A stretch of 45,296 nt of DNA, taken from Gemmatimonadales bacterium (GTDB lineage Bacteria; Gemmatimonadota; Gemmatimonadetes; Gemmatimonadales; JACORV01). The stretch's first letter is position 1. Every line of letters begins with the position of its first letter. Below are positions 19,407 through 43,321 of the stretch, piece after piece. Below the pieces are notes generated by a model, which saw only the letters and a program-made list of their open reading frames with translations, searched no databases and was not told where the DNA came from. The position numbers and the translations under genes were made by a program. Where the stretch lies: positions 1 to 45,296 of the forward strand of contig JBIOIA010000002.1 in the NCBI GenBank assembly GCA_044449445.1, read 5' to 3'.

Positions 19407-19435
19407 TTGCGGCCGGTTTGGGCCCGGGATACGTT
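19407..19435 (+). promoter_or_regulatory. Weaker promoter-like motif before the SDR gene (TTGCGG-N17-TACGTT)
   Basis: TTGCGG at 19407-19412 and TACGTT at 19430-19435. GTG 19443 lies 7 nt downstream. Confidence 0.3.
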
Positions 19436-19442
19436 CGCCGCC

Positions 19443-20294: not shown

Positions 20295-20326
20295 GTTTCC
20301 CGCTGCTTCATGGGCCCGCCCCCGGA

Positions 20327-20992
20327 ATGGTGTTAATGTCGCGTTACTACCGTGATGTTGTCGTGATGGTGACTCTACTTGCCGCAGCTGGCTGCCGTGG
20401 CCACCATCCTAGTCAGGCCCACCCAACGGATCCCTTTGCGGCTATTGCAGTTGCGCCACTCCCAGTCAGCTCGCTCAATGGCTCGAACGTGCTGCTCCTG
20501 GTGGTCGGCGGGCTGTCCCTGGGCGATTCGACGGGCACCCTTCCGGATCTCGAGCCCCGGCGCGCCGCCCTGCTCCTGGAGGCCAATTCCGCCCTGGACA
20601 CCGCCGTGCGCCTGACCGGCCGCGGGGTGACCTGGATGGGTCTCGAGGAGCAGCGACGTGCCGCTCGCCGCAACCCGACCCTGGGGCTCGATCCCGACCA
20701 ATTCGTCACGTCCTACCTGGTCGGGAGCACGGTAGACCGGGTCCCCGACCCGCTGTGGGGCCAGGTGCGCACCCTGGGGGCCATCACCGGGGCCCGGTTC
20801 GCCGTTGTGCCAGCGGCCGTGCGGGTTTCCGGGACCCCAGGCGCTCTGACTGCCTCCTACATCGTGGTCGTGGCGGACATCCGTACCGGGGCGGTGATGT
20901 TCCGGGCCCGGGCGGCCGGCCGGCCGATGGCGACCGCCGAGGCGGCGCTCGCCAGCGCCGCCGGCACGGTCATCGCCGCACCCCTTCACTGA
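20327..20992 (+). CDS. Hypothetical lipoprotein
   Basis: Signal peptide with lipobox (MVTLLAAAGC). No recognisable domain. Confidence 0.55.
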   Translation: MVLMSRYYRDVVVMVTLLAAAGCRGHHPSQAHPTDPFAAIAVAPLPVSSLNGSNVLLLVVGGLSLGDSTGTLPDLEPRRAALLLEANSALDTAVRLTGRGVTWMGLEEQRRAARRNPTLGLDPDQFVTSYLVGSTVDRVPDPLWGQVRTLGAITGARFAVVPAAVRVSGTPGALTASYIVVVADIRTGAVMFRARAAGRPMATAEAALASAAGTVIAAPLH

Positions 20993-21005
20993 TTGGGACG
21001 CGAGC

Positions 21006-22043: not shown

Positions 22044-22081
22044 GGAGTCTCGCAACCGGGTCGTCGGCGTTCTCGACGTTC

Positions 22082-22717
22082 GTGCAGGTGGTGCCGCGGC
22101 TGCCGACGCTGATCCGGCGCATGCAGCCGACGTGGCACCTCCGGGCACTCGCGGCGCTCGACGGGCCGTTTCTCGAGGCGAACGGGATCCGCGGGCTGAT
22201 CTGGGACGTGGACGGGGTGCTCGCCGCCGATCGCGGCCCGCTCATTCCCGAGGCCGCGCAGACGTTTCGCGCGCTGCGGGGGCGACCGGGTCTGAAGCAC
22301 GTGATTCTGTCCAACGCGGGCGAGGAGCGGTTTCGGCAGCTTGGCGACATCTTCCCGGCAGTGCCGATCGTTCGTGGCTATCTGCTTGGGGAAAGCGTGC
22401 TGTATCGACGTCGCCTCGGCAGGGCGGACAGCTGGAGCGGGGCCGAGCTCGAGCAGCGGCTGGGCGAGGGCGCGCGGATGATCAGGAAGCCGAGCGCGCA
22501 GCTCGTGGACTACGCCATTCAGGAGCTGGGGTGCCGCAAGGATGAGACGGTGATGATCGGTGATCAGTACTTCACGGACGTGGCGGGCGCGAACCTCGCC
22601 GGCGTCCGCTCGATCAAGCTGCCGACCCTGGCGAAGGAGACGTTCCGGCTCTCAGTGCGGCTCTCGCACGCGCTCGAGTCGGCGATTTACGCCCTCCTGT
22701 ACGGACGCGCCGCGTGA
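22082..22717 (+). CDS. YqeG/GEP4-like HAD-superfamily phosphatase
   Basis: DVDGVL (DxDxV), KPS and GDQYFTDV motifs. Start uncertain (GTG 22082, TTG 22040 or ATG 22121). Confidence 0.65.
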   Translation: MQVVPRLPTLIRRMQPTWHLRALAALDGPFLEANGIRGLIWDVDGVLAADRGPLIPEAAQTFRALRGRPGLKHVILSNAGEERFRQLGDIFPAVPIVRGYLLGESVLYRRRLGRADSWSGAELEQRLGEGARMIRKPSAQLVDYAIQELGCRKDETVMIGDQYFTDVAGANLAGVRSIKLPTLAKETFRLSVRLSHALESAIYALLYGRAA

Positions 22718-23343
22718 CCGCCGAGGAGCTGCGCGCGCGCCTGGAATCGCTCGGTGTCGGCCGCATCGGGCGCCTGCGGCTGACCGACAACCACTCGGTG
22801 ATGGTGAGCCTCTCGCGGCGCGGCGTGCTGAGCGTGCATCGTGGCTACGCTTCGGCGCCCGATCACGTGCTCAAGGCGATCGTGCGCTTCGTGTCGCGTG
22901 GCACGCCGCGGCGCGCGCGCGCGGCCGCCCGGCACGAGATCCTCGGCTACCGCGTGGTCCTGCGCGAAAACACGCCGGCCCGCCACCCTGACAGGGCGCT
23001 TCCCGGAGACCGGGAGCTGGCGGAGCGGCTGGCCGCTGCGTTCCGGTCGCTGAACGTGCGACATTTCGGCGGTGTGTTGGCCGAGTTGCCGATCAGGCTG
23101 TCCGGGCGCATGCGCTCGCGGCTGGGCCATCTGGCCCTCGACGAGAGCGGCCGGCCGGTGGAGATCACGATCGGCCGCGGGCACGTCATGCAGCACGACT
23201 GGTCGGAGGTGACGCAGACGCTGTTGCACGAGATGGTTCACTTGTGGCAGTTCGCGAACGGCCATCCCGTGAATCACGGAGCGACCTTCCGGGCCAAGGC
23301 TCGCGAAGTGGGCGCTCATGCTGCGGCCCGACGGACGCTCTAA
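22714..23343 (+). CDS. SprT-like zinc metalloprotease-domain protein
   Basis: LLHEMVHLWQ HExxH motif in an SprT-like context. 4-nt overlap with the upstream gene. Confidence 0.7.
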   Translation: MTAEELRARLESLGVGRIGRLRLTDNHSVMVSLSRRGVLSVHRGYASAPDHVLKAIVRFVSRGTPRRARAAARHEILGYRVVLRENTPARHPDRALPGDRELAERLAAAFRSLNVRHFGGVLAELPIRLSGRMRSRLGHLALDESGRPVEITIGRGHVMQHDWSEVTQTLLHEMVHLWQFANGHPVNHGATFRAKAREVGAHAAARRTL

Positions 23344-23357
23344 CGAAGGCGACGACC

Positions 23358-24545
23358 ATGGCAGCTCGGTTCGACGGCGTGGACTACTACAACATGGATG
23401 GCCTCCTCAGCGAGGAGGAGCGTGCGGTCCGGGATACCGTCCGGCAGTGGGTGGACGACCGGCTCGCGCCGGTCATCAACGAGTGCTACCTCGAGGGCCG
23501 TTTCCCGGTGCAGCTCATCCCGGAAATGGCGGAGCTGGGCTTCCTAGGGGCGAACCTGCCGGAGGAATACGGCTGCGCCGGGCTCAACAACGTCGCCTAC
23601 GGCCTGATCATGCAGGAGCTCGAGCGCGGCGATTCGGGCGTGCGCTCCTTCGCTTCGGTGCAGGGCGGGCTCGTCATGTATCCGATCTACACCTTCGGCT
23701 CCGAGGAGCAGCGGAAGCACTGGCTGCCGAAGCTGGCGAAGGGCGAGGTCATCGGCTGCTTCGGCCTGACCGAGCCGGATTTCGGCTCCAATCCCGGCGG
23801 CATGATCACGACGGCCAGGGAGACCAAGGACGGCTGGGTGCTGAACGGCGCCAAGATGTGGATCACCAGCGGCTCGATGGCGCAGCTCGCCGTGATCTGG
23901 GCCAAGACCGGCGATCCCAAGGACGTCTCGTCCATCCGCGGCTTCCTGGTTCCGACCGACGCCAAGGGCTTCACGGCGAAGGACCAGAAGGGGAAGCTGT
24001 CGCTGCGGGCCTCCGACACGTCCGAGCTGGTGCTCGAGAGCGTGAAGGTCCCGAAGGACGCGATTCTCCCGAAATCCTCCGGGATCAAGTCGCCGCTGAT
24101 GTGCCTGACGCAGGCGCGCTACGGCATCGCGTGGGGCGCGATCGGCGCCGCGATGGGCTGCTACTGCGAGGCGCTGAGCTACGGCAAGCAGCGCGTCATG
24201 TTCGACAAGCCGATCGCCGGCTTCCAGCTCCAGCAGCTGCGCTTCGCGGAAATGCTGACGGAGATCACCAAGGCCCAGCTGCTGTGTCTCCAGCTCGGCC
24301 GGCTCAAGGACGCGGGGACGATGCGGCCGCAGCAGGTGTCGCTCGCCAAGCGGAACAACGTGAACATGGCGTGCGAGTGCGCGCGCGAGGCGCGCCGCCT
24401 GCTCGGCGCCAACGGCATCCTGGCCGAATACAGCGCGATGCGTCATCTCGCGAACCTCGAGAGCGTCTACACCTACGAGGGCACGCACGACATGCACACG
24501 CTGATCCTGGGCGAGGACGTCACGGGACTTTCGGCATTCGAATGA
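23358..24545 (+). CDS. gcdH: Glutaryl-CoA dehydrogenase (acyl-CoA dehydrogenase family)
   Basis: ATG at 23358. CFGLTEPDFGSNPGGM and YEGTHDMHTLILG resemble GCDH-type ACADs. Confidence 0.85.
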   Translation: MAARFDGVDYYNMDGLLSEEERAVRDTVRQWVDDRLAPVINECYLEGRFPVQLIPEMAELGFLGANLPEEYGCAGLNNVAYGLIMQELERGDSGVRSFASVQGGLVMYPIYTFGSEEQRKHWLPKLAKGEVIGCFGLTEPDFGSNPGGMITTARETKDGWVLNGAKMWITSGSMAQLAVIWAKTGDPKDVSSIRGFLVPTDAKGFTAKDQKGKLSLRASDTSELVLESVKVPKDAILPKSSGIKSPLMCLTQARYGIAWGAIGAAMGCYCEALSYGKQRVMFDKPIAGFQLQQLRFAEMLTEITKAQLLCLQLGRLKDAGTMRPQQVSLAKRNNVNMACECAREARRLLGANGILAEYSAMRHLANLESVYTYEGTHDMHTLILGEDVTGLSAFE

Positions 24546-24558
24546 CGGGGACCACCGA

Positions 24559-25311
24559 GTGAAAATCGCCGTGTGCATCAAGCGCGTGCCGGACACGGAG
24601 ACGCGCATCAAGATCGCCGCCGACGGCGTCTCGATCGACGAGGCCGGCGTCAAGTTCATCCTCAATCCCTTCGACGAGTACGCGGTCGAGGAGGCGCTCC
24701 AGCGACGCGAGAAGGCCGGCGCCGGCGAGGTTGTGATCGTCACCCTGGGCGGCGAGTCCGCGCAGGAGACGATCCGCACCGCGCTCGCGATGGGCGCGGA
24801 CCGCGGCGTTCTGCTCACGGCGCCGGCCATTCCGGCCGACGGCCTGGCGACCGCGAAGGCGCTCGCCGCCGAGCTCAAGGGTGGCGGCTACGACCTGATC
24901 CTGTTCGGCAAGATGGCCGCGGACGACTACAACCATCAGGTCGGCCCGATGGTCGCCGAGCTGCTCGGCGTGCCGTGCGCGAGCGCCGTCGTCAAGCTCC
25001 AGATCGAGGGCGGCACAGCGACTGCGGAGCGCGAGGTCGAGGGCGGCATCGAGGTCGTCGAGTGCTCGCTGCCGGCGGTCTTCACGGCCGACAAGGGCCT
25101 CAACACGCCGCGCTATCCGGCCCTCAAGGGAATCATGGCCGCGAAGAAGAAGCCGATCGAGGTGAAGCCCGCCGCGCTCGGGCCGGTGCGCGCCCGAGTG
25201 AAATCGCTCGGCTCGCCCCCTTTGCGGAAGGAAGGGCGCATCGTGGGTGAGGGCCCCGGCGCGGTGGGCGAGCTGGTGCGGTTGCTCCGCCAGGAAGCGA
25301 GGGTGATCTGA
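24559..25311 (+). CDS. etfB: Electron transfer flavoprotein beta subunit
   Basis: MKIAVCIKRVPDTETRIKI... is a classical EtfB N-terminus. 250 aa. Confidence 0.92.
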   Translation: MKIAVCIKRVPDTETRIKIAADGVSIDEAGVKFILNPFDEYAVEEALQRREKAGAGEVVIVTLGGESAQETIRTALAMGADRGVLLTAPAIPADGLATAKALAAELKGGGYDLILFGKMAADDYNHQVGPMVAELLGVPCASAVVKLQIEGGTATAEREVEGGIEVVECSLPAVFTADKGLNTPRYPALKGIMAAKKKPIEVKPAALGPVRARVKSLGSPPLRKEGRIVGEGPGAVGELVRLLRQEARVI

Positions 25312-26285
25312 TGGCGAAGATCCTCGTGGTCTGTGAGCAGAAGGGCGGCACGGTGCGGAAGGTGAGCCGCGAGGTCGTCGCCGCGGCGCGGCAGCTCGCC
25401 GATGCGTCGGGCACCGTGGACGCCATCGTCCTGGGCGCTCCCGGCCTCGACGCCGCGGGCGCGAAACTCGGCGAGGCCGGCGCCGACCGCGTGCTGGTCG
25501 CCGCCGCCGCCGGTTTCGGCAACTACGCGCCGGACGGCTACGCGGCGACCATCGCCGCGCAGGTGAAATCAGGCGGCTACTCCGCCGTGCTGCTGGGCGC
25601 GACCGCGATGGGGCGCGACCTCGCCGCGCGGCTTGCGGTGCAGGTGGACGCGCCGCTCGCGATGGACGCGACCGCGGTTGCAATGGAGGGCGGCAAGGTC
25701 GTCGCCACGCGGCCGGTGTTTGCGGGCAAGGCGATCCAGCAGCTCGTGCTCGATGCGGCCACGGTCCTGGTCGCGATCAGGCCGAACATCTTCGCGGTGG
25801 GAGCGGCCGGAAAGGCCGGTACGGTGGAGAACGTCACGGTCAGCGCGGTCACGCCGCGGACCCTCGTCAAGGAGGTCAAGGCGGCGGAGCAGGGCGCGCT
25901 GGACGTCTCGGAGGCGGCGGTCGTCGTGTCGGGCGGCCGCGGCATGAAGGGCCCCGAGCATTTCCATCTGATCGAGGAACTCGCGAAGGCGTTCGGGAAC
26001 GCGGCGGTGGGCGCCTCGCGCGCGGTCGTGGATGCGGGGTGGCGGCCGCACGGTGAGCAGGTGGGGCAGACCGGCAAGACGGTCAGCCCGCAGCTCTACA
26101 TCGCGATCGGCATCTCGGGAGCGATCCAGCACCTGGCGGGCATGCGCACGGCGAAGGTCATCGTGGCGATCAACAAGGACAAGGACGCACCGATCTTCAA
26201 GGTCGCCGACTACGGCATCGTGGGTGACGCGTTCGAGATCGTCCCGAAGCTCGCCGAGGAAATCCGCAAGGCGCGCGCCGGCTAG
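25311..26285 (+). CDS. etfA: Electron transfer flavoprotein alpha subunit
   Basis: ATG overlaps the etfB stop. C-terminal FAD-binding region ...[16 protein letters not shown]... Confidence 0.92.
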
Positions 26286-27214
26286 AGGCCGGGCGGCGGG
26301 TCGGCGCCGTAGAGATCGCCGGCGAGGTACTTCATCCCGCTGTCCACGGCTACCGTCACCACGGTCTTGCCCTCGCCGAGCTCGCGCGCGATCTGGAGCG
26401 CGCCGACGACGTTCAGCCCGGTGGAGGTGCCGGCGAAGATCCCCTCCTCGCGCGCCAGCCGCCACGCCATCAGCCGGCCTTCCTTCTCGTCGATGGCCCG
26501 CGCCTCGCCGACCTGGGCGACGTCGAAGAGCGGCGGGACGAAGCCGGGCGCCGTGCCTTCGACCCGGTGTGCGCCCGGCGCGCCTCCCGACAGCACGGCT
26601 GAGGTGGACGGCTCGAGCGCGACGAGGCGCGGCCGCGGCCGGCGGGAGTTGAGCACGCGCGCCACGCCCATCAGCATGCCCGACGTCCCCGTGCAGGCGC
26701 AGAATGCGTCGATCGAACCGTTCGTCTGCGCGAGGAGCTCTTCGCCGAGGCCGGCGTAGCCCGCGAGCATGTCCTTGTTGCGCATCTGATCGGTGAAGTA
26801 GCTCGGAGCCTCGGCCGCGACGCTTCGGGCACGCTCCGTCATCCGGGGCACCAGGTCCGGCGTGAGCTTGCCGGTCGGGCTGTCGACGATGTCCAGCTCC
26901 GCCCCGAACACCTGCATGCTTCGCAGCTTCTCGGCGGCGACCGCGTTGGACGAGACGACGCGGAACCGGTAGCCCTTCACGGCGCAGACGAACGCGAGCG
27001 AGATGCCGGTGCTGCCGCCCGTCCACTCGACCACCGTCATGCCCGGCTTGAGGTCGCCGCGCCGCTCGGCCGCGGCGATCATGGCGAGCGCCATGCGATC
27101 CTTGTACGAGCCGGTCGGGCTCAAGTACTCGAGCTTCACGAGCACCGCGGCGCTCTTCTCCGGCACGACGCGCCCAAGCCGCACCAGCGGCGTGTTCCCG
27201 ATGGCGTCGAGCAT
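26282..27214 (-). CDS. PLP-dependent cysteine synthase/CBS-family enzyme
   Basis: MLDAIGNTPLVRL... and the SPTGSYKDR lysine motif. ATG at 27214 chosen (alternative GTG at 27238). The ORF-track N-terminal extension is Arg/Ser-rich and looks spurious. Confidence 0.8.
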   Translation of the reverse strand: MLDAIGNTPLVRLGRVVPEKSAAVLVKLEYLSPTGSYKDRMALAMIAAAERRGDLKPGMTVVEWTGGSTGISLAFVCAVKGYRFRVVSSNAVAAEKLRSMQVFGAELDIVDSPTGKLTPDLVPRMTERARSVAAEAPSYFTDQMRNKDMLAGYAGLGEELLAQTNGSIDAFCACTGTSGMLMGVARVLNSRRPRPRLVALEPSTSAVLSGGAPGAHRVEGTAPGFVPPLFDVAQVGEARAIDEKEGRLMAWRLAREEGIFAGTSTGLNVVGALQIARELGEGKTVVTVAVDSGMKYLAGDLYGADPPPGL

Positions 27215-27242
27215 CGACGGGACCCCGGGCGCCGTCACGCGC

Positions 27243-27917
27243 TCAGGTCCTGAAGAGGCCGACGATGCGCAACGTCTCGGCGGCGAACGCCGGGACCTCC
27301 GCGGGATCGACGAGCTTGTCGCCGCGGAAGGCGAGCAACCGGCCGCCGCGCGTCTGGACGCGCCAGCCCGGCGCGGCGGCGAACCATGCCAGCGCATCGA
27401 TCGTGAAGGCCCGGCGGATCGCCGCTTCGTCCGGTCCCTTCAGCAGGTAGCGCTTCGAAAACTCTTCGTTCTGCTCGAAGTCGATGTCCTGCGCCCCGAA
27501 CACCTCGGCCAGTCCATGCAGGAGCCCCTCGGGCGACAGCTGGAATTCCGGCAGTCCCTTCGCGCCGTCGGTGAACACGACGACGGTCTGGCGATGCGTA
27601 TGCGCACTCTTGCCGGAGCCGGTCGTGTACCGATAGTCGATGATGGCGGTGTCGCGATCCGCGAGCTTGCCTCGGAGTATGCGCGCGGCCTTGCGGCTGT
27701 GCCCGATCCCGAACAGAGGGAGGTCGAACCCGGTGATATCGAGCGGCCGCCGGTTCGCCTGCTCCTCGTAGGCGAAGCCCATGGCCTGCGCGACCGCCCT
27801 CATGGCCGCGTTGCGCTTCTTCTCGGCCAGATACGAGGCGTACGCGGTGCCGGCGATACCGACGCCCACGACACCGAACACGATCAGGCCCGGCCAGGGC
27901 GAGCCCGAGCTCGCCAC
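27243..27917 (-). CDS. Hypothetical membrane-anchored protein
   Basis: GTG at 27917 overlaps the TAG of the upstream small gene. One N-terminal TM helix (PWPGLIVFGVVGVGIAGTAYASYL) followed by a soluble domain of about 190 aa with no motif I recognise. Confidence 0.5.
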   Translation of the reverse strand: MASSGSPWPGLIVFGVVGVGIAGTAYASYLAEKKRNAAMRAVAQAMGFAYEEQANRRPLDITGFDLPLFGIGHSRKAARILRGKLADRDTAIIDYRYTTGSGKSAHTHRQTVVVFTDGAKGLPEFQLSPEGLLHGLAEVFGAQDIDFEQNEEFSKRYLLKGPDEAAIRRAFTIDALAWFAAAPGWRVQTRGGRLLAFRGDKLVDPAEVPAFAAETLRIVGLFRT

Positions 27918-28174
27918 TAGAGCTGCGCCTCGTCGATCAGCCGGACCAGCTCGGCGAATGGCGCGGTTTCCTTCGTGGGCTTGTGGGTGGCGGGGTCGGT
28001 GCGGATGTGCCATTGCACCAGCTCGGCGAGCGCCATCGCATCGTCGTCGGTGAGCTTCAGGACGTGGCCGCCGTCACTCCCGGTCATCGCGTCGAAACGC
28101 GAACGGAGGCCGTCCGGCACGTCCGTGAGCGTCTTCAGCGCGTCCACGATGGGCTGCGTGAGCCTGACCTGCAT
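27917..28174 (-). CDS. Hypothetical 85-aa acidic protein
   Basis: ATG at 28174 preceded by GGAGGA (28181-28186 on plus). Coding-like composition. No recognisable domain. Confidence 0.5.
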   Translation of the reverse strand: MQVRLTQPIVDALKTLTDVPDGLRSRFDAMTGSDGGHVLKLTDDDAMALAELVQWHIRTDPATHKPTKETAPFAELVRLIDEAQL

Positions 28175-28185
28175 GATCGCTCCTC

Positions 28186-29436
28186 CTAGACCGGCGGCTG
28201 GGAGCCGAATGCCTGCGCGTCTCCCAGCAGGATGGCGGTGATCGTCTCGCCCGGCAGCACCGCGTCGCGTCCCTCGGGAATCACGAGCAGCGCGTTGGCC
28301 CGCGCCATGCTCGTGAGAATGCCCGAGCCCTGCGGTCCCGTCAACGTCGCCCTGAGCGTTCCGTTCTCCTCGCGGATGACGCCGCGCAGGAAGTGCGTCA
28401 GCCGACCCGGCGTTTTCGCGGGCTCGTCCATGACCACGCGCACGGTGCGACGGAACAGGTCGCGATAACCCTGCATCTTCCGCACGGCGGGCCGCACGAA
28501 CAATTCGAAGCACACCATGGTGCTCACCGGGTTGCCCGGCAGCCCGATCCACGGGACGCCGGCCAGGTGGGCGAATCCCAGCGGCGAGCCCGGGCGCATC
28601 TGCACGCGCCAGAAGTCCATCGTCGCGCCGAGCTTCTCGAGCGCGGTGCGCATGAAGTCGTGCTCGCCGACGCTGACGCCCGCCGTGGAGACGACCAGGT
28701 CGGACTCGCGCGCGCCGCGCTCGAGCAGGGCCGCCACGCTGTCCAGCGGGTCGGCCGCGATGCCTAACGGAACCGGCGTGGCGCCGGCGTCCAGGGCCAG
28801 CGCGTGGAGGGTGTACGAGTTCGAGGACGCGATCTTGTCGCCGGCCAGGATCGCCGCCGCCTGGTCGAGTTCGGCGATCTCGTCGCCGGAGGCGAGGATC
28901 GCGACCCGCGCGCGCCGGTGCACGCGCACCCGCGGCATCGCCATGGAGGCGAGCACGCCGAGCTGCGCCGCGCCGAGCACCGTGCCCGGCTCGAAAACGC
29001 GCGCGCCCTTCTTCAGGTCTTCGCCGGCCAGGCGCAGGTTCTTGCCCGCGTCACGCTCGTCGAAAACCGCGACCCTGTCGCCCGCGCGCTCGGTGTCCTC
29101 CTGGCGGATGACGCCGTCGGAGCCCTCGGGGAGCGCCGCGCCGGTGAAGATGCGCGCGCACTGGCCCGCGCCCAGCACTTTCGCCGGCAGCCGGCCCGCC
29201 GGGATTTCCTCGATGATGGCGAGCCGTTTCGGCGCGGCCTTCGTGGCGCCGCGCACGTCCGTCGAGCGAACCGCGTAGCCGTCCATCGCGGAGTTGGTGC
29301 GGGGCGGCAGCACGAGTGGGGAATCCACCGGCTCGGCGAGGACACGGTCCCTGGCCTCGAGGAGCGCGACTTCCTCGACGCCCAGGACTTTCACGCCGGC
29401 GACGATGCGCTCTGTCGCCTCGCGGACGCTGGTCAC
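28186..29436 (-). CDS. moeA: Molybdopterin molybdenumtransferase MoeA
   Basis: GTG at 29436 within a GTGA overlap with dacB. NSAMDGYAV, GDEI and STAGVSVGEHDF motifs. The rest of the 920-aa track ORF is out-of-frame read-through of dacB. Confidence 0.9.
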   Translation of the reverse strand: MTSVREATERIVAGVKVLGVEEVALLEARDRVLAEPVDSPLVLPPRTNSAMDGYAVRSTDVRGATKAAPKRLAIIEEIPAGRLPAKVLGAGQCARIFTGAALPEGSDGVIRQEDTERAGDRVAVFDERDAGKNLRLAGEDLKKGARVFEPGTVLGAAQLGVLASMAMPRVRVHRRARVAILASGDEIAELDQAAAILAGDKIASSNSYTLHALALDAGATPVPLGIAADPLDSVAALLERGARESDLVVSTAGVSVGEHDFMRTALEKLGATMDFWRVQMRPGSPLGFAHLAGVPWIGLPGNPVSTMVCFELFVRPAVRKMQGYRDLFRRTVRVVMDEPAKTPGRLTHFLRGVIREENGTLRATLTGPQGSGILTSMARANALLVIPEGRDAVLPGETITAILLGDAQAFGSQPPV

Positions 29437-30962
29437 CGCCGCCGGCGCGCGAAGTTGGCCAGCCGCTCGACGACGTGGTCTTGCGCGCGCTCCACGACGC
29501 GGCGACTCGCGGTGAAGTGATTGCACAGCAGCACGAACACCAGCCGCTCGCCGTCCAGGGTCGTGACGTAGCCCGACAGGCTGCGCACGTTCGCGATCGA
29601 TCCGGTCTTGGCGTGCACGTTGCCCTGGGCCGCCGTGCCGCGCAGGCGCTGGTCGATCGTCCCATCCACGCCCGCGATGGGGAGCGCGGCGTAGAAGGCG
29701 TTGAAGTCCGGATTGCGCGTGATCGAGACCAGCGCCTGCGCGATCGCTTCGGGCGCCACGTAGTTGTAGCGCGAGAGCCCGGACCCGTCGATGTAGACGT
29801 AGGCGTCCTCGGGAATCCCCCAGCCGGTCAGCGTTTCGTGCACGACCACGCGGCCGCTGTCGACGGACGCGACGTTCTTGACCACGCCGCCGAGCGTGCG
29901 CAAGAGCGCCTCGGCGATCTGGTTCTGGCTGGGCTTGAGGAGAAGCGTGAGGACGCTGTCCAGCCGCGGCGACTGCCAGGCGAACAGCGTGTCGATCCGC
30001 GGACTGCACAGGCAGCACGAACAACCGGGACCCGAAAGCGGCGAGGCGGGGACGATCGTCGTCGAGGGCGGCAGCCGCGGGCCGAGCACGCTGATGCCGG
30101 CTTCGCGCAGGGCCTGAGTCAGCGCATCCTCGAAGAAGCGCGTGGGGTCGGTGACCGCGGCCTCGAACTGCATGGGCGGGTGGCCTGCCGACAGCCGGCC
30201 GCTGAGCAGCACCGAGTCGGTGTAGAAGGCGCGCGAGTAGTGCACGTCCCGGATGTTCGAGTCCCGGCTCGCCGTAGTGACTTGCGAGAACACCCTGAGC
30301 GGAGCGCCTTCGGGCCACAGGCGAGCGTGCGCCGTGTCGCCGGGGTTGGCACCCGGCGTCACGTCGATCACGGCGAAGCCCTCGTTGAACTGGAGCGCGC
30401 CCACCGGTGCCGAGTATGAGTCCTGGAGGTCGTCCCACATCCATCCCTCGCCGAGGACCGGGCCCTGGAACCAGCTCGCGTCGCCGACCACGCGCCCCGT
30501 GATCACGCGGATGCCGCGCGCCTTGAGCGAGTCGGCCCACGGCCGCAGCGGGGCCAGGATGTCGCCGTTGGCGCTGGCGTGCTGCGACAGTGCGGGATCG
30601 CCGTGCCCGACGACGACCAGGTCGCCGCTCAGCGTGTCGCCGCTGCGCGCTCCGCGCGCGAGAATCACGGTCCGCCACCTGAAGTCGGCGCCCAGCCGCG
30701 CGAGCGCGACGGTGCCGGTGACGATCTTCTGGTTGGACGCCGGCATGAACAGCCGCGCCGCGTTGCGTCGGTAGAGGACCTGCCCGTTGGTGGCCGACTG
30801 CACGACGACGCCCCACTGCGCGCGGGCGAACTCGGGGCCGTCGAACGTGCTGTCGAGCTCGGCGGCGAGGCTGCGGACTTCTGGAGCGAGGGGTTCGGTT
30901 GGATGACGGGCGGCGCAGCCCGCCACGAGGATCGCGGCGAGCGCGCACGCCCCGCGCCTCAC
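29433..30962 (-). CDS. dacB: D-alanyl-D-alanine carboxypeptidase/endopeptidase (PBP4, peptidase S13), lipoprotein
   Basis: Active-site ASNQK, plus HGDPAL and KTGS motifs. GTG at 30962 within a GTGA overlap with mobB gives VRRGACALAAILVAGC (lipobox). Confidence 0.85.
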   Translation of the reverse strand: MRRGACALAAILVAGCAARHPTEPLAPEVRSLAAELDSTFDGPEFARAQWGVVVQSATNGQVLYRRNAARLFMPASNQKIVTGTVALARLGADFRWRTVILARGARSGDTLSGDLVVVGHGDPALSQHASANGDILAPLRPWADSLKARGIRVITGRVVGDASWFQGPVLGEGWMWDDLQDSYSAPVGALQFNEGFAVIDVTPGANPGDTAHARLWPEGAPLRVFSQVTTASRDSNIRDVHYSRAFYTDSVLLSGRLSAGHPPMQFEAAVTDPTRFFEDALTQALREAGISVLGPRLPPSTTIVPASPLSGPGCSCCLCSPRIDTLFAWQSPRLDSVLTLLLKPSQNQIAEALLRTLGGVVKNVASVDSGRVVVHETLTGWGIPEDAYVYIDGSGLSRYNYVAPEAIAQALVSITRNPDFNAFYAALPIAGVDGTIDQRLRGTAAQGNVHAKTGSIANVRSLSGYVTTLDGERLVFVLLCNHFTASRRVVERAQDHVVERLANFARRRR

Positions 30963-31480
30963 CGGGCGCCCTGCAACACGATGTCGATCAGGCGGTACAT
31001 CCATGCGGTGTCGGAGAAGCGCAGGATCGGCACCGCAGCGCGGAACTCGCGATCATCCGTCACGATCGCGAGAAACTTCTCGGAGCCCGGAACGCCGGCC
31101 TGGTAGAGCGGTTCGGCGTGCACGGCCTTGCGGAACACTTCGATCTTCGGCAGGTCGGATTCCTTGAATCCCTCGACCACCACGAACTGCGCCTCGGCGA
31201 GGTACTTGTCGGCCAGCTCGCGCGGTCCCATCGGCTCCTCGGGCTTCGCGAGCAGCACGCGCATCGTCGGCGTCTCCATCACGACGCGGCTCGATCCGCC
31301 CTCGTGCATGTGGCGCCACGTGTCCCGGCCCTGCTGGTCGATCTCGAACGGATGACTTCCGTGCTTGATCGTCATCACCTTGTGACCGCGGCGGACGAGC
31401 TCCTTCACCAGCGCGACCACGAGCGTGGTCTTGCCGGCGTTCTTCTTGCCTACGATCGCGATCAGCCGGGGACCCGGCAT
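30959..31480 (-). CDS. mobB: Molybdopterin-guanine dinucleotide biosynthesis adapter MobB
   Basis: 173 aa. P-loop IVGKKNAGKTT and KHGSH segment. Confidence 0.85.
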   Translation of the reverse strand: MPGPRLIAIVGKKNAGKTTLVVALVKELVRRGHKVMTIKHGSHPFEIDQQGRDTWRHMHEGGSSRVVMETPTMRVLLAKPEEPMGPRELADKYLAEAQFVVVEGFKESDLPKIEVFRKAVHAEPLYQAGVPGSEKFLAIVTDDREFRAAVPILRFSDTAWMYRLIDIVLQGAR

Positions 31481-32064
31481 AGCGACTCCGCTCGCTCGAG
31501 GTCAGACGGTGAATTGACGTTGAAGAATAGAACGTCCGGGTCGCCGTACTGCAACACGCGCTCCCGGCCGAGCCGCGCCACGCGCACGTCGTTGTGGAAC
31601 GCGATCGCGCGCTGGTCGCCACGGGCCAGGGCCGCGCGGATCGCCGGGCCGCAGGCGGGCCCGTAGGCGGCACACAGCGGCTCCACGCCGCGCCGAGAGT
31701 CGCTCTCGGGTATCGCGACGTCGGCCCCTTCCAGCATCTCCGCCAGCGTGCCGAGCAGCGGGGCGGGCACGAACGGCATGTCCCAGGCGACGCACAGGAC
31801 GCTTCCGCTCGTCTCGACCGCCGTGAGTATGCCGCCCAGGGATCCCATGCCGGGGGCGACGTCCCGATGCACGGTGAGACCGGGCCGCCACTCCGGAGCT
31901 CCCGGGTCGTTCGCGATGAGGATGGGCGGTTTCCCCGTGGCCGCGGTGAGCGCGTCCACCACGCGGTCGATGACCCTTCGCCCGCCGACTCTGACCAGGC
32001 CCTTCGGGGCGCCGCCGTAGCGCGTGGCGGAGCCGCCGGCGATGACGGCGCCCGTGAGCGTCAG
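31462..32064 (-). CDS. mobA: Molybdenum cofactor guanylyltransferase MobA
   Basis: VIAGGSATRYGG (LAGGxxxRMG-type motif) and WDMPF segment. The only possible initiator upstream of the motif is a CTG at 32064, so the start is uncertain. Confidence 0.75.
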   Translation of the reverse strand: MTLTGAVIAGGSATRYGGAPKGLVRVGGRRVIDRVVDALTAATGKPPILIANDPGAPEWRPGLTVHRDVAPGMGSLGGILTAVETSGSVLCVAWDMPFVPAPLLGTLAEMLEGADVAIPESDSRRGVEPLCAAYGPACGPAIRAALARGDQRAIAFHNDVRVARLGRERVLQYGDPDVLFFNVNSPSDLERAESLCRVPG

Positions 32065-32921
32065 TAGCGCCTGGGATGCCGGCGCTCGAGCACAACGTCG
32101 AGGCCGATCAGGAAGGTGGGCAGGTGGCGCACGATGGTCGTCATCGGCGGCTCGGCCGCCGGGTTGTTGGGGTCTCGCGGACCCGTCGCGACGGACAGCT
32201 GGGTGATGACGTCGCGGAACTCCATCCTCGCGCGGTAGCCCGGAGCGAGCGACACCGACATTCCCACGGCCAGGTTGAGCACCCACGTGATGTCGGGCTT
32301 CGACGGGTTCTGGACGATGCTTTCCTCGCAGCCCAGGACGCACGTGGCCGTGTCCTGAAACACGCCGACCGTCTCGATGAACGAGCTGTTGCCCAGCAGC
32401 CCGGGCCCGCCCGTGACGCGCACGAAGGGCTGCACCGGGGCGTCTGGGGCCGTCGGCCGATAGGTGACGCCGCCCAGAAGGCCCACCACGTAGGTGCTGA
32501 CGTGTGCGCCGTTCGCGGTATTGCAGACCTGCTCGTTCTCGCGCTGCGGATCGGACTGCCAGGCCGCGGGCCCGGTGCAGCGTTGCTCGGAGCCGATGCC
32601 GAAGAACGCGACGTCCGCGGTCCAACCCCAGTGCCGTGACGCGTAGTAGGTGGTCACCAGTCCCGTGACGAGACCGGGCCGCAGCAGCCGGGCGAGGGAC
32701 AGCGTGTCGTGCTGGAAGTTCGGCGCGCTCACTGCCTGCGCCGGGATTTTCCACAGGTCGCTGCCCTCGCTCAGTCCGCCGTAGATCGTGAACACGAGCT
32801 GCGCCTCGTCGCTCGATTGTGCGTGAGCAGCGGGCACGGCCGCGAACAGCGGCAGCAGGGTGAGCAGCGTGAGCAGCGCGACGTGCGCGCACCCGGCTCT
32901 CACGTCGCGGCCGCTACGCAT
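32061..32921 (-). CDS. Hypothetical secreted beta-barrel-like outer-membrane protein
   Basis: Sec signal peptide ending AHA-QS. Alternating hydrophobic beta-strand pattern. Weak similarity to the 35743-36525 product. Confidence 0.55.
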   Translation of the reverse strand: MRSGRDVRAGCAHVALLTLLTLLPLFAAVPAAHAQSSDEAQLVFTIYGGLSEGSDLWKIPAQAVSAPNFQHDTLSLARLLRPGLVTGLVTTYYASRHWGWTADVAFFGIGSEQRCTGPAAWQSDPQRENEQVCNTANGAHVSTYVVGLLGGVTYRPTAPDAPVQPFVRVTGGPGLLGNSSFIETVGVFQDTATCVLGCEESIVQNPSKPDITWVLNLAVGMSVSLAPGYRARMEFRDVITQLSVATGPRDPNNPAAEPPMTTIVRHLPTFLIGLDVVLERRHPRRY

Positions 32922-33645
32922 CGGGGCGATGGAGTTGGGCGTTGCCCGAAACTGCGCGACCGACGAGGACGACGCCCGCGCGCCGCGCGATCGTGACGGC
33001 GAGCGTCGTCGGCACCGAAACCGTCGCCACCCACGCGAGGCCCGCGCGCGCGGCCTTGAACGCCAGCTCGGCAGAGATGCGGCCGGTCACGAGCAGGCCG
33101 AGGCCGGCCGGATCGAGCTTCCTGAGCAACGCGGCGCCGATGACCTTGTCCACCGCGTTGTGTCGCCCGACGTCCTCGGCGTGCGAAACGAGTGCGGTGC
33201 CATCGGTGAGTGCCGCGGCGTGGATCCCGCCCGTCTCGTGATACCGTGATCCCTTGCCGAACATTTCCTTGAACAGAACCCGCAGTGTCGCCGTGTCCGG
33301 CGGCTCGCCCTTCGCGGGCGTCTTGCGCAGCGATTCGGGATCCGCGAGCGCGACGCTCACGGCGCCGCAGCCCGAGGCCAGGACGCGCCGCCGGTCGTCG
33401 GCGGCGACCGCTGCAAGGCGTTCCGCGGGCACCTCGGCCCAGAAGCCGAGGTCGGTCGCGCACGGCCGGAGCGAGAGCAGCTCGTCCACGCGGGCGATGT
33501 AGCCCTCGCCGTGCAGCCACCCGACCACGAGCTCCTCGAGCTGGTCGGGAGTGCACATCCAGGTCACCGCGGGCCGGCGATTGACCTCGAGCCACACCGT
33601 CACTTCCTCGACCGCGGCGAGCTGGTCCGTCGTGGTGTGCGACAT
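32914..33645 (-). CDS. fdhD: Formate dehydrogenase accessory sulfurtransferase FdhD
   Basis: ATG at 33645 overlaps the upstream stop. ASGCGA loop, HAAAL, and the DVGRHNAVDKVIG signature. Confidence 0.85.
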   Translation of the reverse strand: MSHTTTDQLAAVEEVTVWLEVNRRPAVTWMCTPDQLEELVVGWLHGEGYIARVDELLSLRPCATDLGFWAEVPAERLAAVAADDRRRVLASGCGAVSVALADPESLRKTPAKGEPPDTATLRVLFKEMFGKGSRYHETGGIHAAALTDGTALVSHAEDVGRHNAVDKVIGAALLRKLDPAGLGLLVTGRISAELAFKAARAGLAWVATVSVPTTLAVTIARRAGVVLVGRAVSGNAQLHRPDA

Positions 33646-34070
33646 CAGGTCTCGCCCCGGTATTCGGCGAACAGCGACGGCTCTTCCTCGACGCGCACCA
33701 GCGAGAGCGCGCATCCCTTCGGCAGCCGGGCGGCGACGCGCCGCCACACGTCGAGGCACAGCATCTCGCCGGTCGGCACGATGCCGCCGTACGCGAACTC
33801 GGCGACGTCGAGGTTGATGTGCCGGTGATCGAAGCGCCGCACGACCTCCTCGTCCAGGACGCGGTCGAGCAGCGCCAGGTCCACGACCATGCCGGAAGCC
33901 TGATCCGGCGTGCCGCGCACCGTCACGGCGCACCGGTAGGTGTGTCCGTGGCCGTGCTCGCGCGAGGACGTACCGAACACCTCGGCGTTCCGCTCCGCGC
34001 TCCACTCGGGCCGGAAGTAGCGGTGCGCGGCGCTGAACTGAACCACGCGCGTGAGGTAGCAGGTCGGCAT
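33645..34070 (-). CDS. 6-pyruvoyl-tetrahydropterin synthase / QueD-family protein (atypical)
   Basis: 141 aa. FSAAHRY, HGHGHTY, GMVVDLALL and DHRHIN segments of the PTPS fold. No Cys upstream of the HGH motif. Confidence 0.75.
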   Translation of the reverse strand: MPTCYLTRVVQFSAAHRYFRPEWSAERNAEVFGTSSREHGHGHTYRCAVTVRGTPDQASGMVVDLALLDRVLDEEVVRRFDHRHINLDVAEFAYGGIVPTGEMLCLDVWRRVAARLPKGCALSLVRVEEEPSLFAEYRGET

Positions 34071-34084
34071 CGTCGCAAGATACC

Positions 34085-35086
34085 TCAGAAGACGCGCACG
34101 GCGACACTCTTGAACGCCGCGTACACGCTCCCGCCGACCGAGAGTCCCAGCTCCTCGAAGCTGCGCCGCGTGATGAGCGAAACGAGCTCGATGCCGCCGG
34201 CGGCCGCGACCGTCACCCGCATGGCCGCGCCCTGCTCGGAGACGCGCACGATGCGCCCCTCGATGACGTTGCGCGCCGAGGAATGGAGCGGCTCCGTCGA
34301 GAGCAGGATGTCTTCGGGCGCGACCGCCAGCGTCGCCGGCCCCTCGCGATCCGTCACGACCTCGATCATGAGCGGGCCGACCGGGATGATCTTCTCCGGG
34401 TTGCCGCCCGAGAGCTCGACCCGGAACAGATTCTCCGGGGTGACAGGCGTCGGGACGCCGTTCAGCAGCGCGAGCAGCCGGTCAGCCCAGCGATAGGCGT
34501 CCTCGAGCAGGTGCGAAGCGACGCACACGGCCATCGGCCGCCGACCCTGCGCGGTCGTGATCGCCGTGTAGAGCGCGTGCTGCGCCGCGCGATCGGCGCC
34601 TGAGACCGGTTCGTCGAGCAGCAGCACGTCCGGCGCCACCGCGAGAGCGCGCGCGACCGCGACGCGCTGGATCTCGCCCTCGGAGAGCGAGCGCGACTCG
34701 CGCGCGGCGAGCGTCTTCGCCTGGAGCAGCGTGAGCGCGTCGAGCGCGGCGCGACGCGCCTCCTCGGCCGACACGCCGCGCGCGCGCTGTCCCCAGGCGA
34801 CGTTCTCGAGCACCGTGCCGCGAAACAGGAACGGGCGCTGCTCGACCATCGTGACGCGGCGGCGCGCGCGGCGGCGCTGGCGCGCGGTCACGATCGGCAT
34901 CTCATCGAGCGCGAGCGTCCCCGACGCGGGGCGATCGAGGAACGCGAGCAGCCGGAGCAGGGTGCTCTTGCCGGCGCCGTTCGGCCCGACCACCGCGAGG
35001 CGCGTGCCGGGCTCGAGCCGCAGCGACGGCACATCGAGCACCGTGCGCCCCTCGCGCTCCTGTCGGAGCGAGGTGACCTCAAGCAT
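34085..35086 (-). CDS. ABC transporter ATP-binding protein with C-terminal TOBE (molybdate/tungstate-type) domain
   Basis: Walker A GPNGAGKST, signature LSEGE and Walker B LLLDEP. C-terminal SARNVIEGRIVRV...AAFKSVAV resembles TOBE. Confidence 0.85.
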   Translation of the reverse strand: MLEVTSLRQEREGRTVLDVPSLRLEPGTRLAVVGPNGAGKSTLLRLLAFLDRPASGTLALDEMPIVTARQRRRARRRVTMVEQRPFLFRGTVLENVAWGQRARGVSAEEARRAALDALTLLQAKTLAARESRSLSEGEIQRVAVARALAVAPDVLLLDEPVSGADRAAQHALYTAITTAQGRRPMAVCVASHLLEDAYRWADRLLALLNGVPTPVTPENLFRVELSGGNPEKIIPVGPLMIEVVTDREGPATLAVAPEDILLSTEPLHSSARNVIEGRIVRVSEQGAAMRVTVAAAGGIELVSLITRRSFEELGLSVGGSVYAAFKSVAVRVF

Positions 35087-35732
35087 CGCCGCGCCCGTGC
35101 AGCATCTGGAGGATCGCGTTCACCGTCAGGGCGAGCGCGAGCAGGATCAGGCCCAGCGCGACCGCGAGCCCGAAGTCGCCCTGCGACGTGGCCAGCGTGA
35201 TCGCCGTGGTGAGCGTCCGGGTCTCGCCCTTGATGTTGCCGCCCACGATCAGCGCCGCCCCGACCTCGGACAGCACGCGTCCGAACGCGACCGCGACGGC
35301 GGCCGCGAGCGCCAGTTTCGCCTCGCGCAACACCGCCCACGCCGAGCGCAGCGGGCCGGCGCCGAGCGTCAGCGCGGTGCGCAGCACGCGCGGGTCCACC
35401 GCCTGCACGGCCGCGGCCGACAGCGAGGCGGCGATCGGGAAGGCGAGCACGGCCTCGGCCGCGACGATCGCGCGCCAGGTGAACAGCAGCTGGAGCTCGC
35501 CGAACGGCCCGCGGCGCGCCAGCAGCAGGTAGAGGACGAGACCGACCACGACGGTCGGCAGCGCGAGGGCCGTGTTGAGCGCGGTGAGCAGGACGCGGCG
35601 GCCGCGGAACGTGGTGCTGCCCAGCCACGCGCCGGCCGGGATGCCGAGCGCGCACGCCACGAGCGTGGCGAGCACCGCGACCCTCAGCGACAGCGCCGCG
35701 ATCCCGAGGATCTCGGCGTGCAGCCAGCTCAT
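35079..35732 (-). CDS. ABC transporter permease, tungstate/molybdate/sulfate-uptake type (TupB/ModB-like)
   Basis: 217 aa with 5-6 TM segments. LTLGAG and IVGGNIKGETRTLTTAI segments resemble TupB-type permeases. 8-nt overlap with the ATPase gene. Confidence 0.75.
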   Translation of the reverse strand: MSWLHAEILGIAALSLRVAVLATLVACALGIPAGAWLGSTTFRGRRVLLTALNTALALPTVVVGLVLYLLLARRGPFGELQLLFTWRAIVAAEAVLAFPIAASLSAAAVQAVDPRVLRTALTLGAGPLRSAWAVLREAKLALAAAVAVAFGRVLSEVGAALIVGGNIKGETRTLTTAITLATSQGDFGLAVALGLILLALALTVNAILQMLHGRGDA

Positions 35733-35742
35733 GCGCCGGCGT

Positions 35743-36525
35743 CTAGAGGTTGAAGTGGAACGTCAATCCGGCCGTCAGCGTGAAGTTGTGCGTCATCTGC
35801 GTGTCCTTCTCGCTGTTGGGATCGAGCACCGGCGGCGTGATCGGGACGCCATTGGCGTCGGTCGGGAAGAAGTAGGTGGAGGGCCAGGAATACTGGATCG
35901 TGTTGTCGCGCGCCTCGATCGTCAGCGAGATGGATCGTCCGATACGCGCCCGGGTCCCGATCGTCGGCACGAACGTCAGGTGGGAGTTCGGGCTGAAGCC
36001 GCCCGGGTCGGTCACGGTCTTCGTGGGCGCGACGATGCCGAACGCGACGCCGACGTAGGGCTCGAGCCCGTGAAACGACCGGGCGCCGGTGAGCCGGAGC
36101 GCGAGTCCCAGGTCGGCCGATACGAGCTTCAGGTCGATGGGCCCGGTCATGCGCGTGGCCGCAGGCTGTGAGGGATCGATCACGTTGCGCTTGCTGCTGA
36201 TCTCCGCGAACGTGACCCACAGTTCCAACGCATTCGAGAGCGACTGCGTGAACCGGGCGCCGATCTCCGGGCCCGCCTGCGACCCGACGCCCGCGTTGGC
36301 TCGATTGCCGAAGAATTCGCTGACGAACGGGGTGATCGTCTGGTGCGTGGTCACGTCCTGGAAAGGCGAGTGCTCGGGATCGTGGCCCACCTGGGCGGAC
36401 AGGCGGATGGGCGGCCGGGCGGACAGCAGGACCAGGGTCAGGAGCACCCACGCCCCCGCTCCAGGTGACCTGCGCCGGGTCCGTCCGCCAGTCCGCCTGT
36501 TCGCCTGTCCGCCTGCGTTTGACAT
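35743..36525 (-). CDS. Hypothetical secreted beta-barrel-like outer-membrane protein
   Basis: ATG at 36525 preceded by GGGAG. Signal peptide ...LLTLVLLSARPPIRLSA-QV. C-terminal ...LTAGLTFHFNL has a beta-barrel-like ending. Confidence 0.55.
   Translation of the reverse strand: MSNAGGQANRRTGGRTRRRSPGAGAWVLLTLVLLSARPPIRLSAQVGHDPEHSPFQDVTTHQTITPFVSEFFGNRANAGVGSQAGPEIGARFTQSLSNALELWVTFAEISSKRNVIDPSQPAATRMTGPIDLKLVSADLGLALRLTGARSFHGLEPYVGVAFGIVAPTKTVTDPGGFSPNSHLTFVPTIGTRARIGRSISLTIEARDNTIQYSWPSTYFFPTDANGVPITPPVLDPNSEKDTQMTHNFTLTAGLTFHFNL
36483..36514. repeat. Tandem octanucleotide repeat, 4 units (GTCCGCCA GTCCGCCT GTTCGCCT GTCCGCCT)
   Basis: Read directly from the sequence. It lies in codons 4-15 of the minus-strand beta-barrel gene, just upstream of the plus-strand -35 box. 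Confidence 0.9.
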
Positions 36526-36547
36526 CGCTACTCCCATGTTCTACAAT
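36519..36547 (+). promoter_or_regulatory. Near-consensus sigma-70 promoter (TTGACA-N17-TACAAT)
   Basis: TTGACA at 36519-36524 and TACAAT at 36542-36547, in the divergent junction. GTG 36555 is 7 nt downstream. The ATG at 36546 is embedded in the -10 box. Confidence 0.6.
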
Positions 36548-36554
36548 GACTTTC

Positions 36555-43310: not shown

Positions 43311-43321
43311 CCCCGCCCCCG

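Follow-up and report, generated by a model that had tools for sequence, protein, structure and literature searches.

In Methylorubrum extorquens the proteins MoeA1, MobB, MobA, and FdhD were shown genetically to constitute one route for the maturation of a formate dehydrogenase which carries tungsten (W) in a bis-molybdopterin guanine dinucleotide cofactor (bis-MGD) (PMC13197769). The role of a lysine in the oxyanion pocket of MoeA is discussed as a determinant for molybdate versus tungstate (PMC13197769), and the CXXC pair of FdhD was reported as non-essential in FdsC and for some formate dehydrogenases (PMC6239281). Here we present a stretch of 45,296 nucleotides (nt) from a Gemmatimonadales bacterium (GenBank assembly GCA_044449445.1, contig JBIOIA010000002.1, positions 1 to 45,296, the whole of which is called the window) in which the same families are encoded in a head-to-tail string of 13 minus-strand genes, 26282-36525. 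In the direction of reading these are g1, an outer-membrane β-barrel protein (O1); g2 and g3, a permease and a TOBE-ATPase of the ATP-binding cassette (ABC) type; g4, a member of the pyruvoyl-tetrahydropterin synthase (PTPS) family; g5, FdhD; g6, a second barrel protein (O2); g7, MobA; g8, MobB; g9, a penicillin-binding protein of type 4 (PBP4); g10, MoeA; g11, a protein of 85 amino acids (aa); g12, a membrane-anchored protein; and g13, a CysK-like enzyme. Probably, this is a lineage-specific and vertically inherited string of the Gemmatimonadales with a core of late bis-MGD assembly and a Tup-like importer, in which the other genes are passengers.

The gene order is not unique to this genome. 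Comparison of gene orders shows that it is kept in about 90 species loci of the Gemmatimonadales, including O1 and PTPS, which do not belong to the molybdenum cofactor (Moco) genes proper. The shared backbone reads (gpmI)-O1-(permease-ATPase)-PTPS-(FdhD)-(O2)-MobA-MobB-(PBP4)-MoeA, brackets denoting optional members. In the full layout a divergent arm with genes for SH3, optionally DUF2281, IMPDH, an amino-acid permease, and DHH leads away from the string, and a gene for a CoA-binding protein, optional as well, may enter between FdhD and O2; the 85-aa gene, g12, and CysK, all three optional, follow MoeA. Scanning of genomes with the g1 family as anchor furnished 63 species-level loci, all from Gemmatimonadota, onto which the proteins of the window were mapped. 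Members were counted over the 49 loci which hold both O1 and MoeA, and the counts are not phylogenetically independent: MobA is present in 48 of these complete loci, MobB in 46, PTPS in 45, and FdhD in 33, followed by permease plus ATPase (25), O2 (21), PBP4 (11), the 85-aa gene (5), g12 (3), and the CysK-like gene (1). The two ABC genes never occur apart and are always located between O1 and PTPS. FdhD is present in 25 of 25 loci with the ABC pair compared to 8 of 24 loci without it (Fisher p = 2e-7, without phylogenetic correction); for O2 the respective figures are 16 of 25 and 5 of 24 (p = 0.004). A scan anchored on MoeA, and as such independent of O1, led back to this array in 19 of the 20 loci from Gemmatimonadota; of the loci sampled in other phyla, about 60, none had O1, PTPS or PBP4 beside MoeA. 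The fullest version is locus L072 with gpmI-O1-permease-ATPase-PTPS-FdhD-O2-MobA-MobB-PBP4-MoeA-85aa-g12. Locus L008 has kept O1 and PTPS, and MobA and MobB are not present.

Two further observations were made in these comparisons. In 19 loci the gene of a 137-aa protein with a CoA-binding domain (PF13380) follows FdhD or PTPS and precedes O2 or MobA (e.g., L004, 9588-10001); it is not in the window. Homologues of g1, g6, and g11 are mostly metagenomic, and the few named ones are metagenome-assembled genomes (MAGs) of Gemmatimonadales.

The window has a GC content of about 70%. According to profiles of codon positions and third-position GC, its minus strand is coding without interruption from about 26250 to 36550, and the frames agree with those of 13 open reading frames (ORFs). 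The genes are joined by eight start/stop overlaps and four gaps of no more than 14 nt. The gaps are at g1/g2 (10 nt), g3/g4 (14 nt), g10/g11 (11 nt), and g12/g13, where 4 nt remain if g13 starts with GTG at 27238 and 28 nt if it starts with ATG at 27214. Overlaps of 8 nt connect g2 with g3 (35079-35086) and g5 with g6 (32914-32921), and one of 19 nt connects g7 with g8 (31462-31480). Four nucleotides are shared at g6/g7 (CTGA, 32061-32064), at g8/g9 (GTGA, 30959-30962), and at g9/g10 (GTGA, 29433-29436), a single one at g4/g5 (TGATG, 33645) and g11/g12 (TAGTG, 27917). Start/stop mapping together with Pfam and NCBIfam reproduced all gene calls, the gene order, and the listed overlaps of a preliminary description of this DNA. 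Pfam and NCBIfam families were assigned to the permease, the TOBE-ATPase, PTPS, FdhD, MobA, MobB, PBP4 (S13), MoeA, and the CysK-like protein; g1, g6, g11, and g12 gave no family match. In the unit and in the window ORFs scanned against Pfam, i.e., those picked by the codon-position profile out of all possible ORFs, we found no moaA/C/D/E, no mogA, no molybdoenzyme subunit, and no solute-binding protein. Two more statements of the preliminary description hold as they were made, that the late steps of bis-MGD assembly (MoeA, MobA, MobB, FdhD) are encoded without the early ones, and that the importer has no adjacent gene for a binding protein.

MoeA (g10, 28186..29436, 416 aa; all genes g1 to g13 are on the minus strand) is a molybdopterin Mo/W insertase with the domains MoeA_N, MoCF_biosynth, and MoeA_C, all three above the Pfam gathering cutoffs, and aligns over its full length with MoeA from E. 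coli (E 1.5e-65). The oxyanion loop reads MRPGSP in the window and MRPGAP in 36 relatives; the lysine of the canonical (I/M)KPGK (K297 in Cnx1E) is not present. A prediction of a preference for Mo or W from the MoeA pocket was dropped because the loop fits neither published type. FdhD (g5, 32914..33645, 243 aa), the sulfurtransferase and bis-MGD chaperone of formate dehydrogenase, matches PF02634 with 187.7 bits and TIGR00129 with 132.6 bits, slightly below the cutoff of 140.9. It possesses a single cysteine (LASGCGAV) which corresponds to the first of the CXXC pair (C121/C124 in E. coli) and is invariant in all orthologues examined. MobB (g8, 30959..31480, 173 aa) is a P-loop GTPase adaptor with the P-loop GKKNAGKTT and 114.9 bits for PF03205 (cutoff 26.6).

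The Moco guanylyltransferase MobA (g7, 31462..32064, about 200 aa) is identified by PF12804 (E 1e-25) and scores 83.8 bits with TIGR02665, below the cutoff of 151.85. Its essential N-terminal nucleotide loop, xAGGxSxRxG, is present as AVIAGGSATRYGG. Upstream of AVIAGGSATRYGG there is no ATG, GTG or TTG; the sole candidate is a CTG, probably the true start, which forms part of the CTGA overlap with the stop of O2. This CTG is kept in relatives which have O2, e.g., L003, L009, L002, L006, L007, L013, L014, and L032, because the end of g6 is invariant (...RRY-TGA). In relatives lacking O2, e.g., L033 and L070, MobA begins with ATG. Judged from these starts, translation of MobA appears to be coupled to that of O2, and the conserved CTG may be regarded as the best single evidence for coupled expression in the string.

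The permease g2 (35079..35732, 217 aa) is TupB-like (PF00528, E 5e-15). It belongs to NCBIfam subfamily NF038017 (218.9 bits, cutoff 100) and scores 174.7 bits with the TupB model NF041773 (cutoff 320) and 118 with ModB (cutoff 183). Its partner g3 (34085..35086, 333 aa) is a WtpC/ModC-like ATPase (PF00005, E 1e-30) with a C-terminal TOBE domain (PF03459, E 4e-16); the scores for WtpC (193.5 bits, cutoff 440) and ModC (149.6 bits, cutoff 285) are both below the equivalog cutoffs. In Vibrio hepatarius (L149, 6613-11197) an NF038017 permease exists whose score profile nearly equals that of g2. There, the genes for a TupA-like protein (TTTS motif), the permease, and an ATPase are directly upstream of a 591-aa ORF in which MobB-like and MoeA-like regions are combined, i.e., a proteobacterial linkage of importer and insertase which includes a binding protein. 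Because of this context, of the TOBE domain, and of the strict co-occurrence with FdhD we infer that the permease-ATPase pair imports molybdate or tungstate and serves the maturation of formate dehydrogenase. The strict pairing with FdhD points to a metal supply directed at this enzyme. A gene for a TupA, ModA or WtpA protein was neither among the window ORFs scanned nor in the Pfam gene tables of the relatives L003, L006, and L007. In a tblastn search with a Vibrio TupA-like query (E up to 10) no TupA-like sequence was found in about 150 loci, of which about 90 are from Gemmatimonadales; for ModA- and WtpA-type proteins, of which no tblastn query was made, the absence refers to the Pfam gene tables of the three relatives.

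The first gene of the string in the window codes for O1 (g1, 35743..36525, 260 aa), an outer-membrane β-barrel of the OmpW/OmpA class with a signal peptide (...RLSAQ|VGHDP). The start at 36525 (MS...) is backed by homologues. The O1 family comprises 83 clusters, and its named and genome-derived members are all from Gemmatimonadota; the most distant members match PF13505. O2 (g6, 32061..32921, 286 aa) also has a signal peptide and the conserved cysteines 115 and 133. Its family consists of 42 clusters, none of them named, and all genome loci with O2 are from Gemmatimonadota. O2 is a weak, remote paralogue of O1 (hhalign against the O1 family, probability 81%). The Pfam models OmpW and OMP_b-brl did not match O1 or O2 of the window, neither one has a match in Pfam or NCBIfam, and a search of genome contigs with the single g6 protein gave no confirmed relative. 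For O1 the patterns for searching genomes were drawn from a subset of closer homologues, since the full g1 alignment is too diverse. AlphaFold models were computed from alignments of 44 (g1) and 36 (g6) homologues. Both are all-β, with a pLDDT of 88.5 for O1 and 89.0 for O2. Foldseek matched O1 with OmpW (2f1t/8qxp, E about 1e-6, target TM-score 0.69-0.74) and O2 with OprG, OmpW, the OmpA transmembrane domain, and Legionella porin III (E 4e-6 to 3e-4). The probability was 1.00 for OmpW, OprG, and OmpA with both barrels, and NspA was also among the matches. The family profile of O1 has a weak sequence match with AlkL (6qam, E 8e-5). Thus the two barrels, which the preliminary description had proposed, were correctly recognized. 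OmpW-type barrels, of which OmpW, OprG, and AlkL structures are available, are known as narrow hydrophobic channels and not as anion pores. Neither barrel is the missing binding protein. O1 was considered for this role and ruled out: its model is that of a membrane barrel and not of a two-lobed binding protein, and it persists in loci without importer.

The protein g4 (33645..34070, 141 aa) is a T-fold zinc enzyme of the PTPS/COG0720 family (PF01242, 96.7 bits). Among proteins of solved structure, rat PTPS is closest (1b66, E 1.6e-25); FGKCNNPNGHGH of the rat enzyme is aligned with FGTSSREHGHGH of the window. Published motifs distinguish PTPS-I (QueD), PTPS-II, and PTPS-III (PMC5041015). At the position of the PTPS-II nucleophile cysteine g4 has a serine, and a glutamate is at -3 (ExxHGH). 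The PTPS-II motif CxxxxxHGH is not found, nor is the QueD motif CxxxHGH, an arginine being at -4; TIGR03367 gives 51.5 bits, below its cutoff of 89.25. The PTPS-III motif ExxHGH is present in the window, in L003, L006, and others; L001 and L008 lack it, as do many of the distant orthologues, the loops being of different length. Orthologues of g4 at the same position vary: some have Cys, some both Cys and Glu, and others a shorter loop in which Asp or Glu adjoins HxH. All of them retain the zinc ligands. Our best guess from these motifs is a PTPS-III-like activity in the folate branch, and a role in cofactor metabolism is conceivable. A literature search on a link between PTPS and Moco, or on cofactor operons of Gemmatimonadota, yielded nothing relevant.

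The remaining members have a patchy or narrow distribution. PBP4 (g9, 29433..30962, 509 aa) is a lipoprotein (lipobox LVAGC) and a D-Ala-D-Ala carboxypeptidase/endopeptidase of family S13 (PF02113, 340 bits) with the active site SxxK in PASNQK. In the window and in L003 its gene is inserted between MobB and MoeA with an overlap of 4 nt on each side. The conserved cytoplasmic protein g11 (27917..28174, 85 aa), without assigned function, is preceded by a GGAGG ribosome-binding site. Its family has 34 clusters, 61-99% identical and nearly all 85-86 aa long, with three named members which are Gemmatimonadales MAGs; relatives beyond its subclade were not detected in Pfam, NCBIfam, and the PDB. A MoaD-like sulfur carrier was ruled out for g11 because it has no C-terminal Gly-Gly and no relatives in these databases. 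The membrane-anchored g12 (27243..27917, 224 aa) has one transmembrane helix, no assigned function, and no match in Pfam or NCBIfam. Its family is very large: clustering at 50% identity gives 4367 clusters if E values up to 1e-3 are admitted, of which 2143 have E up to 1e-10; one member, P0298, is fused to ankyrin repeats. The last gene, g13 (26282..27238, 318 aa), codes for a pyridoxal-phosphate enzyme of the CysK/CysM type (PF00291, 216 bits; TIGR01136, 261.6 bits, cutoff 344) which at this position is limited to the window and its nearest relative, L003.

The surroundings of the string are conserved as well. In all 44 loci whose flank is long enough a divergent IMPDH gene is found upstream (44/44), and the amino-acid permease and DHH genes come next in most. 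Thus regional synteny in this order is strong whatever the function. The gene gpmI, which codes for the cofactor-independent phosphoglycerate mutase of glycolysis, heads the string in 53 loci (L004, L006, L008, and 50 others), adjoining or overlapping O1 (ATGA-type); in the subclade of the window it is not at this position. Two plus-strand runs in the window serve as controls for packing. The first (19407-26285) encodes SDR, an unassigned protein, isocitrate dehydrogenase, HAD, SprT, acyl-CoA dehydrogenase, and the beta and alpha subunits of an electron-transfer flavoprotein (ETF). The second (36.6-45.3 kb) encodes SH3, DUF2281, IMPDH, the amino-acid permease, DHH, Mrp/ApbC, an unassigned protein, and MatE. 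Both runs have mostly overlaps or gaps of up to about 50 nt, with one gap of about 77 nt, and their members are functionally unrelated. What overlaps in this DNA reflect is the compactness of the genome and, probably, co-transcription; they are no mark of a shared pathway.

Some details of the flanks may be added. The stops of g13 and the convergent ETF-alpha gene overlap by 4 nt (26282-26285), hence there is no room for a terminator between the converging units. At the other end the control region shared by g1 and the divergent SH3 gene is only about 70 nt long. The sole strong sigma-70-like site (36519-36547, plus strand, TTGACA-17-TACAAT) is near-perfect with 11 of 12 positions; it extends over the 5' end of g1 and faces the SH3 gene. 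Three plus-strand ORFs (20297-20992, 5223-5705, and 43307-44131) have a coding-like codon bias and no Pfam match.

How, then, might the string operate? In the reading which we favor, that of a late bis-MGD and importer core with passengers, MoeA would insert Mo or W, MobA and MobB would attach guanosine monophosphate, and FdhD would sulfurate the cofactor and hand it over to formate dehydrogenase. Permease and TOBE-ATPase would form the membrane half of an oxyanion importer of the Tup/Wtp/Mod class, with the binding protein encoded elsewhere. O1, O2, PTPS, PBP4, g11, g12, and the CysK-like enzyme would be housekeeping passengers which share the transcript, are in part translationally coupled, and work in separate pathways. 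O1 and PTPS would be ancient in the string, PBP4 a patchy member, and g11, g12, and g13 recent, clade-limited additions. The preliminary description had considered the start/stop embedding of the non-Moco genes as an argument for genuine co-expression. This can be maintained: co-expression of the string is plausible, given that no terminator-like sites were seen in 12 kb and that MobA probably starts at CTG. A functional association, if deduced from the embedding, is unsupported. PBP4, the 85-aa, the membrane, and the CysK-like genes occur in only 11, 5, 3, and 1 of the 49 complete loci, respectively. O1 and PTPS are linked to the cofactor genes in one order only and are conserved no better than IMPDH (44/44). 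Elsewhere in the window unrelated genes are packed equally tightly, and gpmI heads the strings of most relatives.

Several points weigh against our reading. The loci counted are related by descent. O2 is found only directly upstream of MobA, with the exception of L117 which has no MobA, and O1 and PTPS stay beside MobA, MobB, and MoeA down to MoeA identities of about 40-50%; this retention of O1 and PTPS could reflect function rather than inertia. A gene for a binding protein is not within 10 kb in any locus examined, so that a working importer is an assumption. Rfam elements, including the Moco riboswitch, were absent from the window at gathering thresholds and from the 5' end at E up to 5; control by Mo or W is unsupported. 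A rival idea takes the whole unit as one integrated Mo/W-cofactor system. In such a system the barrels would admit molybdate or tungstate through the outer membrane and feed an importer which lacks a conventional binding protein, PTPS would handle a pterin or cofactor intermediate, CysK would deliver sulfur for FdhD, and the small proteins would be chaperones. In its favor, O1 and PTPS accompany MobA, MobB, and MoeA almost universally within the order, O1 is directly before the permease wherever a permease exists, and in nearly all O2 loci MobA follows O2 directly and initiates within its stop. The enrichment of O2 with the ABC pair and the lack of tupA, modA, and wtpA nearby would also agree with it, as would a PTPS which retains the zinc ligands, the Asp-His dyad, and the pterin-anchoring Glu, with the nucleophile Cys often lost. 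However, O1 and PTPS remain in 24 of 49 loci without the ABC pair and in L008 without MobA and MobB, and in none of the other phyla sampled does the association occur. IMPDH and gpmI are equally conserved neighbors with no conceivable role in cofactor metabolism; CysK, g11, and g12 are limited to a small clade; and the hydrophobic channels of OmpW-type barrels are generally not known to pass anions. Such an all-embracing system is quite improbable in our view. A narrower version, in which only O1 (and O2) and the nucleophile-variable PTPS are lineage-specific components of Mo/W handling, e.g., O1 for entry through the outer membrane toward a Tup-like importer which operates with no binding protein encoded nearby, and the T-fold pterin protein for carrying or modifying an intermediate, would explain their order-wide linkage to MobA-MobB-MoeA if it were true; we give it very little credence.

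An explanation in the opposite direction dissolves the string into a co-directional run of several transcription units, e.g., O1; permease-ATPase; PTPS; FdhD-O2-MobA-MobB-(PBP4)-MoeA; and g11-g13, the tight spacing being due to the compact genome. Modules were gained and lost independently among the relatives, true gaps of 10-14 nt exist at g1, g4, and g11, the latter with its own strong GGAGG, and unrelated genes are tightly packed throughout the window. Scanning yielded no terminator-like sites or hairpins in 12 kb (3.0 expected from shuffles) and no internal sigma-70 promoters on the minus strand, yet these scans use E. coli-type consensus sequences which are weak for a genome with 70% GC and do not represent promoters of Gemmatimonadota; this, too, restrains our own reading. 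Against several units stand the eight start/stop overlaps, the longest of 19 nt, with no intergenic space above 14 nt for a promoter or terminator, the failure to find a terminator-like hairpin, and the CTG start of MobA which implies coupling to O2. Even the inserted PBP4 gene overlaps each of its neighbors by 4 nt, in L003 as in the window. We consider a division into several units unlikely, and that the string is read as a single transcript, with passenger genes among those of the cofactor core, is what we would expect.

For annotators the lesson is that overlaps and a gene order confined to a single lineage do not establish shared function. For the biology of Mo and W it matters that throughout an order a Tup-like importer stays together with FdhD and the genes of late bis-MGD assembly, and with this comes a conserved example of a putative oxyanion importer without adjoining binding-protein gene. 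Lineage-wide departures affect residues whose part in the choice between Mo and W (the MoeA loop) or in sulfur transfer (the single-Cys FdhD) is under discussion. Candidates for characterization are two barrel families found only in Gemmatimonadota, a subgroup of PTPS proteins which no published signature fits, and the g12 family for which a Pfam model does not exist.

Compared with described systems, individual parts of the string are familiar and deviate in detail. O1 and O2 resemble OmpW, OprG, AlkL, and the OmpA transmembrane domain in having a signal peptide, confident all-β barrel models, and these proteins as top Foldseek matches. They differ in size, with 260 and 286 aa compared to 170-220 aa in the classic barrels, and the query TM-scores are only about 0.5. 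Unlike the classic barrels they were found in Gemmatimonadota only and have a fixed position in a gene string. With the COG0720/PTPS family g4 shares PF01242, the zinc ligands H...HxH, and the Asp-His dyad, yet no single published subfamily signature covers its group of orthologues. The likeness to TupABC, WtpABC, and ModABC consists in TupB and ModB as next-best models for g2 and in the TOBE domain of g3, which is typical of ModC and WtpC; it is limited by equivalog scores which are all below cutoff in the window and by the lack of a local binding-protein gene. The MoeA loop MRPG(S/A)P is lineage-wide and matches neither the canonical IKPGK(P) of E. coli and plants nor the W-biased IKPGR of MoeA1. 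Closest, in all, is the route of Methylorubrum extorquens, together with mobAB, moeA, and fdhD of E. coli: the same four families are available for metal insertion, guanylylation, and sulfuration plus delivery, and, as in other bacteria, the four late genes are apart from the early moaABCDE. As points of difference, FdhD has a single cysteine, MobA is probably started with CTG, and a structural gene for formate dehydrogenase is not nearby; moreover, the Gemmatimonadales locus has all four genes in a single string, with genes for the envelope and for other functions between them.

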